Below, piece by piece: positions 32,630 to 33,923 of a DNA stretch of 64,000 nt (position 1 is its first letter; the number at the start of each line of letters is the position of its first letter). This DNA is from Desulfobacterales bacterium. GTDB taxonomy: Bacteria > Desulfobacterota > Desulfobacteria > Desulfobacterales > G020354645. A model generated the notes under the pieces. That model was given only the letters and a program-made list of their open reading frames with translations, ran no database searches and was not told the DNA's origin. The DNA is taken from positions 4 to 64,003 of the forward strand of contig JASFTQ010000001.1 in assembly GCA_050053515.1 (NCBI GenBank), written 5' to 3'. A program made the translations under genes and the position numbers.

Positions 32630-33309
32630 TAGATTCGCCTTTTCAGGTTAATTATATTTACCCGTTTCGATACGCGGTCTGCCTGATCCGAAATTTCACC
32701 CATTACAATAACCATCTCTTTTAGCTGCAACTTGAGAAAGGGCTCGAGATCGGAGTCGAAAAGTTTGATGATGATTCGACGCTCAATATGGTCACAATGA
32801 CTCTCGTTTTGATCAATGGTCGAAAGCAATGTCTTGATCCCCTCCTTTTTCTTGAGCATCACATCAATTTGCTTGATCATCAGATCGCAACTTTCCAGCG
32901 AAACCCGGATAAGCTCCTGGATGTCCAGCTTGAGGAATTCCGGAAAAAAGAGCTTTTGGGTGCGGAGCATATTCAAAATTTGCTCAAAAGAGCGCGGGAT
33001 CTCATCAACTTTTTCCAGCAGGCCCATGATATCCTCGCGCGACTCGGGAATCAGTGCCCGGCTGTACATCAGTTGATTAATTTCTTCCCGAATTTCATCG
33101 GCTACGGATTCAAATTTGTGGGTCTGGTCCATCAGAAAACAAAAATCGTCACTGACGCCCTCCTTCAGGCAAAGATTCATGGCCTTGGCAAAATGGTCTT
33201 GAATCATACCAAGGTTTTCCAGGTAGTCGTAAATCAATTTTTCCAGTTGGTGCTCTTTTCGAAATAAAAAATTTAACATAATCGGCTCCAATTCAGGTCT
33301 GATTAACAA
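32629..33309 (-). CDS. DUF47 / TIGR00153-type PhoU-like protein, the usual partner of PiT transporters
   Basis: 226 aa and helical. It sits immediately upstream of PiT with a 1-nt overlap, which is the usual DUF47-PiT pairing. Confidence 0.75.
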   Translation of the reverse strand: MLIRPELEPIMLNFLFRKEHQLEKLIYDYLENLGMIQDHFAKAMNLCLKEGVSDDFCFLMDQTHKFESVADEIREEINQLMYSRALIPESREDIMGLLEKVDEIPRSFEQILNMLRTQKLFFPEFLKLDIQELIRVSLESCDLMIKQIDVMLKKKEGIKTLLSTIDQNESHCDHIERRIIIKLFDSDLEPFLKLQLKEMVIVMGEISDQADRVSKRVNIINLKRRI

Positions 33310-33923
33310 ACCGGATATTTTCCCTGCGCAAGCTCCAGGCAGAATCTGTTGATATCGCCAAACGCTTGATTAAAGATTTCTTTAACTTCCCTGGATACAC
33401 CCCGCAATGTCTGGCCCTTCTCCAGAAGAAGCCGAGCATTGGCCATTTTGGATTTGCCGATCTGGCTCAAAAGCAGGACATAAACTTCATTGACCCCTTC
33501 AACACTTTGACATATTTTTTTTGCAAGCTGATGGGCAAGCACATTGTATACCTTACCGACATGGCTGACGGGATTCTTGCCGGCGGCAGCTTCCGTTCCC
33601 ATGGGCCGGTTCATACTGATCAAACCGTTGACCCGGTTGTCCCGGCCGACCTGTCCCGAATCCGCATCTTCGGCTGAAGTGCCGGTCAGGCTCAGATAGA
33701 TTCCGCCGATTCCTCTGTCTTTGTGGTCGAGGGTGTTATGGTTCAAGGATATTTTACGAAACACGCCTTTAGAGAGGCTTGATAAGAAATCCGATATCGC
33801 CTCCATCACGGCATCGCAGATATAATCCGGATGCCCCCTACCTTTGCGCTCGACGATTTCGACGCTCTGCCGCGTGACGGTTTGCTGCCCTTTGAGTGTT
33901 TCTATAAGAATCATTGTGATCAC
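33303..33923 (-). CDS. archaeal-type S-adenosylmethionine synthetase homolog with a large internal deletion (mini-MAT)
   Basis: 206 aa. The N-terminal block is [23 protein letters not shown]. The C-terminal blocks are [54 protein letters not shown] and VLLLSQIGK. Both match archaeal MAT (about 400 aa in Methanocaldococcus as I recall), but roughly 200 central residues are absent. Confidence 0.6.
   Translation of the reverse strand: [206 protein letters not shown]

Follow-up and report, generated by a model that had tools for sequence, protein, structure and literature searches.

In the 64,000-nucleotide stretch of a Desulfobacterales bacterium genome analyzed here (contig JASFTQ010000001.1; hereafter, the window), an open reading frame (ORF) on the reverse strand, followed by a DUF47 gene and a PiT-family permease gene, resembles an archaeal-type methionine adenosyltransferase (MAT) reduced to about half its size. 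Our comparisons suggest, with a probability that we put at roughly 85%, that this ORF represents a bacterial copy of an archaeal-type MAT gene that was inactivated recently, namely a relic or pseudogene. We favor this reading because an intact gene occupies the same locus in L011 (the chromosome of a Desulfobacterales metagenome-assembled genome, MAG), differing lesions are found in two other relatives (G001, of the same genus, and L107), the deletion junction lies on microhomology, a ~90% identical relative reads on undeleted, and no short homologues could be verified. The first-pass annotation of this DNA had proposed either an in-frame deletion relic or a repurposed, ligand-sensing mini-domain; the relic is strongly supported by our results, but the mini-domain received no positive support. 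The remnant comprises the following elements:

33303..33923, reverse strand: MAT-remnant ORF, 206 codons from GTG, uninterrupted frame
33792..33914, reverse strand: N-terminal MAT remnant, codons 1-41, with ERKGRGHPD including the catalytic-His equivalent; 85% identical to the L011 N-terminus
33306..33791, reverse strand: C-terminal MAT remnant, codons 42-203, the C-terminal subdomain; 68% identical to L011
33792..33803, reverse strand: deletion junction, codons 38-41, GAG GCG ATA TCG (E-A-I-S), ...MEAIS|DFL...
33639..33641, reverse strand: Gly-to-Asp replacement in GRGNRVNG, codon 92; Gly in 79/79 full-length homologues
33453..33458, reverse strand: second, 4-codon in-frame gap, QIG----KSKMA versus QIGMPIDEPQLA

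The 206-amino-acid (aa) ORF with a continuous frame that had been described initially is present when read from GTG, the likelier start being the ATG at 33914, which has AGGTGA located 5' of it and yields a protein of 203 aa ending at the TAA stop codon at 33303-33305. A database entry for the same 203-aa protein (P0001) agrees in length with this start. The Pfam profile PF01941 matches the ORF in two stretches, corresponding to profile positions 3-46 and 247-395 of 395 (229.1 bits in total versus a Pfam cut-off of 27), while profile positions 47-246, within a profile that spans three interlocked subdomains, have no counterpart in the ORF. All five NCBIfam MAT models match it in the same two-part way and each far under its cut-off, with the best of the five, NF003363, reaching 274.1 bits versus a cut-off of 557. 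Similarly, the solved archaeal MAT structures 4L4Q, 7P83, 6S81, and 4HPV, from T. kodakarensis, M. jannaschii, P. furiosus, and S. solfataricus, respectively, align only to the N-terminal ~60 and the C-terminal 150-170 residues of the ORF (E = 1.8e-42 for 4L4Q). The absence of about 200 central residues, as claimed in the first-pass annotation, is thereby borne out, and the alignment to L011 divides it into a deletion of 196 aa (L011 residues 42-237) and a separate 4-residue gap. The ORF shares with archaeal-type MATs their N-terminal strand, the histidine of GHPD, the block GTSAE...GRxNRVNG, and the C-terminal subdomain; unlike these enzymes, it lacks six of eight residues known to contact the substrate (listed below) as well as the gating loop, and an invariant Gly is replaced. 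The ORF further represents an annotation trap, as it exceeds the Pfam threshold and would be named 'S-adenosylmethionine synthetase' though it would be unable to be one.

The deletion junction had been placed around 33670-33745 in the first-pass annotation, but the alignment to L011, the codon comparison, and a contig from another sample (X4 record 15, see below) all locate it at 33792-33803. In the intact L011 gene, two 12-nt look-alikes, GARGCGATRTCG, flank the 196-codon segment, one at each end, and are identical at 10 of 12 nucleotides while sharing the same codon phase. The edges of this segment in L011 read ATG GAG GCA ATA TCG (MEAIS), in an N-terminal helix, and TAT GAA GCG ATG TCG (YEAMS), in a helix of the C-terminal part, and the window reads ATG GAG GCG ATA TCG at the junction, followed by GAT TTC. 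Because their codon phase agrees, a deletion that joins the two look-alikes necessarily preserves the reading frame, and no selection is needed to account for the open frame. Internal deletions at microhomology are a known source of pseudogenes. The window's case resembles these in that the deletion lies between short direct look-alikes and that relatives carry independent lesions of other kinds; unlike the usual microhomology pseudogene, its look-alikes sit in phase in two helices, so that the frame survives and the product resembles a designed 'half-size' protein. These comparisons indicate that the locus originally had a full-length MAT gene of ~403 codons, with a sigma-54 promoter upstream of it and DUF47, PiT, and mgtE downstream, and that in the window's lineage 196 codons were lost between the in-phase 12-nt look-alikes encoding E-A-(I/M)-S in two helices. 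The loss would have occurred by replication slippage or short-homology recombination, with the frame being kept automatically.

Given that the window's genome (G000) is a fragmented MAG (492 contigs, 6.65% contamination) and that a short repeat lies at the junction, the deletion might be an assembly artefact, with reads mis-joined at the repeat in an organism that truly has the full-length gene. The repeat is, however, just 12 nt long, imperfect, and far under assembler word sizes. Moreover, among the contigs from four public runs that were mapped to 32600-34400, a 358-nt contig from a second, independent wetland sample (X2 record 5) crosses the junction with 0 differences (100% identity), revealing that the deletion is not an artefact of a single assembly. 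The same 203-aa protein, P0001, is also recorded from 2 contigs and three sources, and a mis-join thus appears barely conceivable. The mapping further provided an age limit for the deletion. Over 310 nt of promoter, leader, and N-terminus, X4 record 15 shows 31 differences from the window (~90% identity); it leaves the window sequence at 33793 to continue as S-VALCKEYLN, which is the undeleted N-terminal helix (LALCKEYLD in L011 and VALSKEYLK in G001). A close relative hence retains the undeleted gene, at least at this point, and the deletion must be younger than that divergence.

Comparison of the same locus among relatives revealed repeated and differing damage. Across 41 genomes including the window's own (40 of the order and one of the same genus), matches to the ORF protein were found in only three (G000, G001, and G009), all of them damaged: by the in-frame deletion in G000, by an out-of-frame deletion in G001, and by an in-frame TAA at codon 246 in G009; the gene is thus in decay throughout the order. 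G001 is collinear with the window over 30254-33323 at 85% nucleotide identity and carries, at the corresponding place, a 74-codon ORF in which 66 N-terminal MAT codons run, out of frame, into the gene's last five codons (AAATATCCGGTTTGTTAA); just 2-3 bases are shared at this junction. Codons 42-66, which are gone in the window, are retained in G001, while the C-terminal 162 codons, which are gone in G001, are retained in the window, and these complementary parts reveal that the two deletions are independent. As for G009, which belongs to another family of the order, its copy (L010, 7329-8567) is a full-length archaeal-type MAT gene of ~412 codons except for the TAA, which is either a nonsense pseudogene mutation or an assembly error in this single-contig genome of 60% completeness.

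A wider scan of public genomes with the ORF protein led to 405 confirmed relatives, of which 80 loci were kept, mostly from Nitrospirota, Thermodesulfovibrionales, Geobacteraceae, and Syntrophus, in agreement with undamaged archaeal-type MAT genes being a common and unremarkable feature of bacteria. Both MAT halves lie ~690 nt apart in 79 of these loci, with the 80th (L090) being cut by a contig end, and the MAT ORF is at least 400 aa long in 78 loci, 384 aa in one, and 355 aa in the one cut by a contig end. A conserved MAT-DUF47-PiT linkage was considered and rejected, since DUF47 and PiT were found within 4 kb of MAT in only 1 of the 80 loci, namely L011. This locus (also retrieved as L093, record CP070746.1) shares the order MAT, DUF47, PiT, and mgtE with the window, and its DUF47 and PiT proteins are 82% and 78% identical, respectively, to those of the window. 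It differs from the window in possessing an intact MAT of 403 aa with all blocks, which is separated from DUF47 by a spacer of 560 nt; the promoters are not comparable, because the sequence upstream of the L011 gene is masked.

In a second scan, with the DUF47 protein, the DUF47-PiT pair was present in all 18 loci obtained, and MAT sequence was found upstream in three: L091, which duplicates the G001 locus, L093, which duplicates L011, and the new locus L107. The latter contains heavily degraded MAT debris at 2614-3038, flanked on one side by a sigma-54-like motif (-513) and on the other by an intact DUF47-PiT pair. This debris consists of a central fragment, which matches profile positions 170-220 (E = 4.5e-9), and of a C-terminal end that is degenerate and lies in a different frame. 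A six-frame search of the long leaders of L092, L094, L096, L098, L101, and L102 with a profile of 79 MATs did not reveal any MAT debris at i-Evalue <1. A tree of 17 rows was built from DUF47+PiT, with L092 and L095 omitted because their PiT is incomplete and with a midpoint root that serves for drawing only. In it, the four states of the MAT gene (intact, deleted in frame, deleted out of frame, and debris) are scattered over a 13-row clade, the other nine rows of which carry no MAT trace. The simplest reading of this pattern would be that the clade's ancestor had a MAT gene upstream of its DUF47-PiT pair and that this gene was then lost piecemeal several times. Synonymous divergence (pS) varies along the locus: over the 40 N-terminal MAT codons (33795-33914), it is 0.79 between the window and G001, as compared with 0.29 for DUF47 and PiT, and 0.34 between the window and L011, as compared with 0.71-0.74 for the flanks. 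This discordance, in a small sample of ~25 synonymous sites, hints that the MAT segment and its flanks may not have a single shared history, as would result from recombination.

The first-pass annotation had recommended looking for orthologous short forms beside PiT genes in other genomes. A search for proteins of near length gave 1851 hits of 113-361 aa, and the best 120 were inspected. Among these 120, the window's own protein is the only one with the two blocks 56 residues apart; 111 carry the C-terminal block alone, five are C-terminally cut partials with the normal block spacing (250), and one (P0050, a C-terminal fragment) displays neither pattern. The 19 sequences that were read among them are C-terminal fragments or internally started ORFs. 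The remaining two of the 120, P0053 and P0108 (288 and 307 aa, with spacings of 137 and 156), were not counted as real short forms, as their source is given as 'SRC' only, without contigs. Their junctions differ from that of the window and are placed at short shared motifs (e.g. ...RFVD|RFIENE...). The read-derived 'SRC' catalogue is assembled at the protein level, a procedure that may produce mis-joins at short shared words, and both entries are probably protein-level mis-assemblies. Overall, no verified short homologue was found among the best 120 of the 1851 near-length proteins, the 41 genomes, and the 80 MAT loci, an outcome that the first-pass annotation itself had associated with a dead relic. 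Our literature search retrieved structural papers on archaeal MAT but, among the papers listed, none on truncated bacterial copies of it; in the passages of PMC8727953 that were searched, the terms 'truncat', 'deletion', and 'horizontal' do not occur.

The deleted segment also bears on what the product could still do. Archaeal-type MATs form SAM (S-adenosylmethionine) from ATP and methionine and are dimers whose active site is at the interface. The substrate-contacting residues named for the T. kodakarensis enzyme (TkMAT) are His33, His62, Asn64, Asp144, Leu145, Asn161, Asp201, and Asp283, and a flexible gating loop spans residues 145-155 (PMC3853416). The structure alignment assigns the deleted part to TkMAT residues ~47-239, which include His62, Asn64, Asp144, Leu145, Asn161, Asp201, and the loop 145-155, so that the only retained equivalents are those of the catalytic His33 and Asp283, corresponding to His28 and Asp85 in the window. 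We infer that SAM synthesis by the remnant's product is not credible: having lost most of the substrate-binding residues and the gating loop, it would make no SAM, which the bacterial-type MetK would supply instead. Bacterial-type metK, the presence of which the first-pass annotation had proposed to confirm, was located elsewhere in the genome, as two open frames of 393 and 403 aa on contigs C131 and C11, and their presence renders the archaeal-type MAT gene dispensable. In view of the 6.65% contamination, one metK copy, as well as one of the two rpoN copies described below, might be a contaminant's.

Several observations weigh against a plain relic. Of 61 columns without variation among 79 full-length homologues, the ORF keeps 59, the two changes being the Gly-to-Asp replacement in GRGNRVNG and a Pro-to-Ser replacement beside the small gap; when each of the 79 intact homologues was left out in turn, 66 had 0 changes, 10 had one, 2 had two, and 1 had three. 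A relative-rate comparison versus the consensus of 78 outgroups gave 12 unique substitutions for the window and 15 for L011, with no acceleration. The frame is open through two separate deletions, of which the 12-nt one is not explained by microhomology, and the intact start codon, Shine-Dalgarno sequence, and promoter suggest that the product is probably still translated. When the window is compared with L011, the MAT parts have a ratio of nonsynonymous to synonymous substitution (dN/dS) of ~0.18-0.20 and DUF47 and PiT one of 0.03-0.07, though this says little, as the synonymous sites are saturated. A very young deletion would account for all of these observations just as well, yet this is no proof that the protein is useless. 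On account of the constraint data we leave a few per cent to a functional product, and with 59 of 61 invariant residues kept in the retained parts, a mini-domain would keep a small probability.

Such a repurposed mini-domain would be a 203-aa product selected as a small nucleotide-, triphosphate-, or metal-binding protein acting together with DUF47-PiT. The open frame with its intact translation and promoter signals, the retained GHPD and NRVNG blocks and invariant columns, the unaccelerated rate as compared with the intact L011 gene, and the location of the ORF at a distance of 23 nt from DUF47, on a shared strand and without an intervening terminator match, would all fit this proposal. We nevertheless consider it unlikely, as no second organism with this form was found in the searches above, the gene was destroyed by other lesions in sister lineages, the MAT-DUF47-PiT linkage is confined to 1 of the 80 intact-MAT loci, the invariant Gly is now Asp, and microhomology is enough to explain the frame. 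Structure prediction points in the same direction. The AlphaFold2 monomer model (42-row alignment) reached a mean pLDDT (predicted local distance difference test) of 52 and a pTM (predicted template modeling score) of 0.50, with no confident fold for residues 16-119 (pLDDT <50), exactly the stretch in which every conserved block facing the ligand is found. Confident modeling was confined to the N-terminal strand and to residues ~120-200 (helix, hairpin, helix), matching the description, in PMC3853416, of the extra N-terminal strand of MAT as belonging to the sheet in the C-terminal domain. A low-confidence model is no proof of disorder, but it offers no support for a compact mini-domain.

A more specific form of this proposal, which we regard as very improbable, holds that a 22-kDa product, composed of the N-terminal strand and the C-terminal subdomain with its triphosphate-facing loops, was co-opted under the sigma-54 promoter as a ligand-binding partner of DUF47-PiT anion uptake. 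If this were true, a new domain would have been born by deletion between two helices encoding the same E-A-(I/M)-S motif in an old enzyme. None of the assembled RNA contigs, the only RNA data considered, lies on the remnant, which gives no evidence either way on its expression; the sole RNA-library contig in the region covers 32960-33170, within DUF47.

Returning to the pseudogene reading, the persistence of the remnant may be related to its surroundings, which comprise the following features:

34002..34016, reverse strand: sigma-54-type promoter match TGGCATGCCAATTGC, -24 GG and -12 GC, 87 nt upstream of the remnant ATG
32629..33279, reverse strand: DUF47 / PhoU_div gene, intact, PF01865 at 83 bits, likely start ATG 33279
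31688..32629, reverse strand: PiT-family (PHO4) permease gene, PF01384, intact, 313 aa; 1-nt overlap between its start and the DUF47 stop
30268..31605, reverse strand: mgtE, broken, downstream of PiT; three frame pieces and an in-frame stop (…ITRLDQ, stop, DQARRLELIGPE…)
34276-34290, forward strand: second sigma-54 match TGGCACGGGTATTGC, directed at a ClpP gene (PF00574) and a Glu/Leu/Phe/Val-dehydrogenase gene fused to two CBS domains (34312-36967, forward strand)

The upstream sigma-54 promoter match noted in the first-pass annotation held up well: its -24 (TGGCAC) and -12 (TTGC) elements are canonically spaced, TGGCAYGN4TTGC has 3 matches in the window versus 0.12 expected from shuffles, and G001 carries CTGGCACGCCGTTTGC at the same relative position. 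Of the 18 related loci, 8 carry the motif TGGCAT(R)NCAATTGC on the coding strand at a distance of 177-628 nt upstream of DUF47, a count by regular expression that has no chance control; in the window this distance is 737 nt. Two matches to PF04552 (rpoN) are found in the genome, on contigs C102 and C246. The sigma-54 promoter probably now serves DUF47-PiT, and the variable distance between motif and DUF47 would fit a promoter that first served MAT (and the genes following it), with the leader shrinking as MAT erodes. According to this scheme, the remnant would persist because the deletion is young, its 5' end would carry the promoter and leader now needed by the intact DUF47-PiT pair, and it would be expected to keep eroding, as in the relatives.

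The first-pass annotation had described a 7-nt overlap between the ORF and the DUF47 start. This applies if DUF47 starts at TTG 33309, but not with the likelier ATG 33279, which is preceded by GGAG at 7 nt, is shared by G001 and L011, and leaves a gap of 23 nt after the remnant TAA; the Pfam model starts at residue 15 of the long (TTG 33309) DUF47 ORF. No terminator match was found between the remnant and DUF47, and no sigma-70-type promoter match in the 23-nt gap. This arrangement allows for a translated leader, in which the protein itself is useless and translation of the ORF to ~20 nt before DUF47 is kept because, on the sigma-54 transcript, it prevents polarity or couples DUF47-PiT translation. 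The remnant ORFs of the window and of G001 indeed both begin at the native ATG and stop 14-23 nt before the DUF47 ATG, and the window's gap, devoid of promoter or terminator matches, is compatible with such coupling. However, the G001 ORF has only 8 codons past its junction, making an end near DUF47 unavoidable, the 513-nt leader of L107 holds only short broken frames and yet its DUF47-PiT pair is intact, and L011 has an untranslated spacer of 560 nt between MAT and DUF47. We therefore find a selected leader improbable, and the pseudogene reading is retained.

Downstream of the remnant, DUF47 is 97% identical to its G001 counterpart (dN/dS 0.04) and PiT is 93% identical (dN/dS 0.11); from these comparisons, both genes appear to be under strong purifying selection. 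The two genes are adjacent and both exceed their Pfam cut-offs, as in the known pairing of DUF47 (PhoU_div, PF01865 / TIGR00153) with PiT (PF01384). The sigma-54-driven DUF47-PiT phosphate operon of the first-pass annotation is thus supported as an operon at the sequence level, but its assignment to phosphate is not secure. Among the NCBIfam models, the window's PiT protein scores best with that of the CysP sulfate permease (128 bits versus a cut-off of 400), ahead of PitA (34 bits versus 800), both under their cut-offs, and the putative substrate in this sulfate-reducer lineage may be sulfate instead of phosphate. The adjoining mgtE is intact in G001 (473 aa), and in L011 its frame stays open as far as a masked stretch; its broken copy in the window represents a second decaying gene of the same transcription unit. 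On the other side of the remnant, a ~3.1-kb segment (33924-37014) is missing at the same place in G001, where an MFS gene follows after ~500 nt. A search for enhancers between the two divergent sigma-54 sites revealed only short, weak repeats.

As a pseudogene, the ORF is an ordinary gene relic, derived from a redundant, horizontally spread archaeal-type MAT, and it has little importance for biology at large. Its value is that of a clean, well-dated example of the loss of a redundant enzyme gene at one locus, where the intact gene, an in-frame deletion, an out-of-frame deletion, debris, and no trace can be seen side by side, while the promoter of the lost MAT has meanwhile probably been inherited by the neighbouring transporter genes. 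It further illustrates that a half-size homologue with a continuous frame is by itself no evidence of a new domain if its junction lies on in-phase microhomology.

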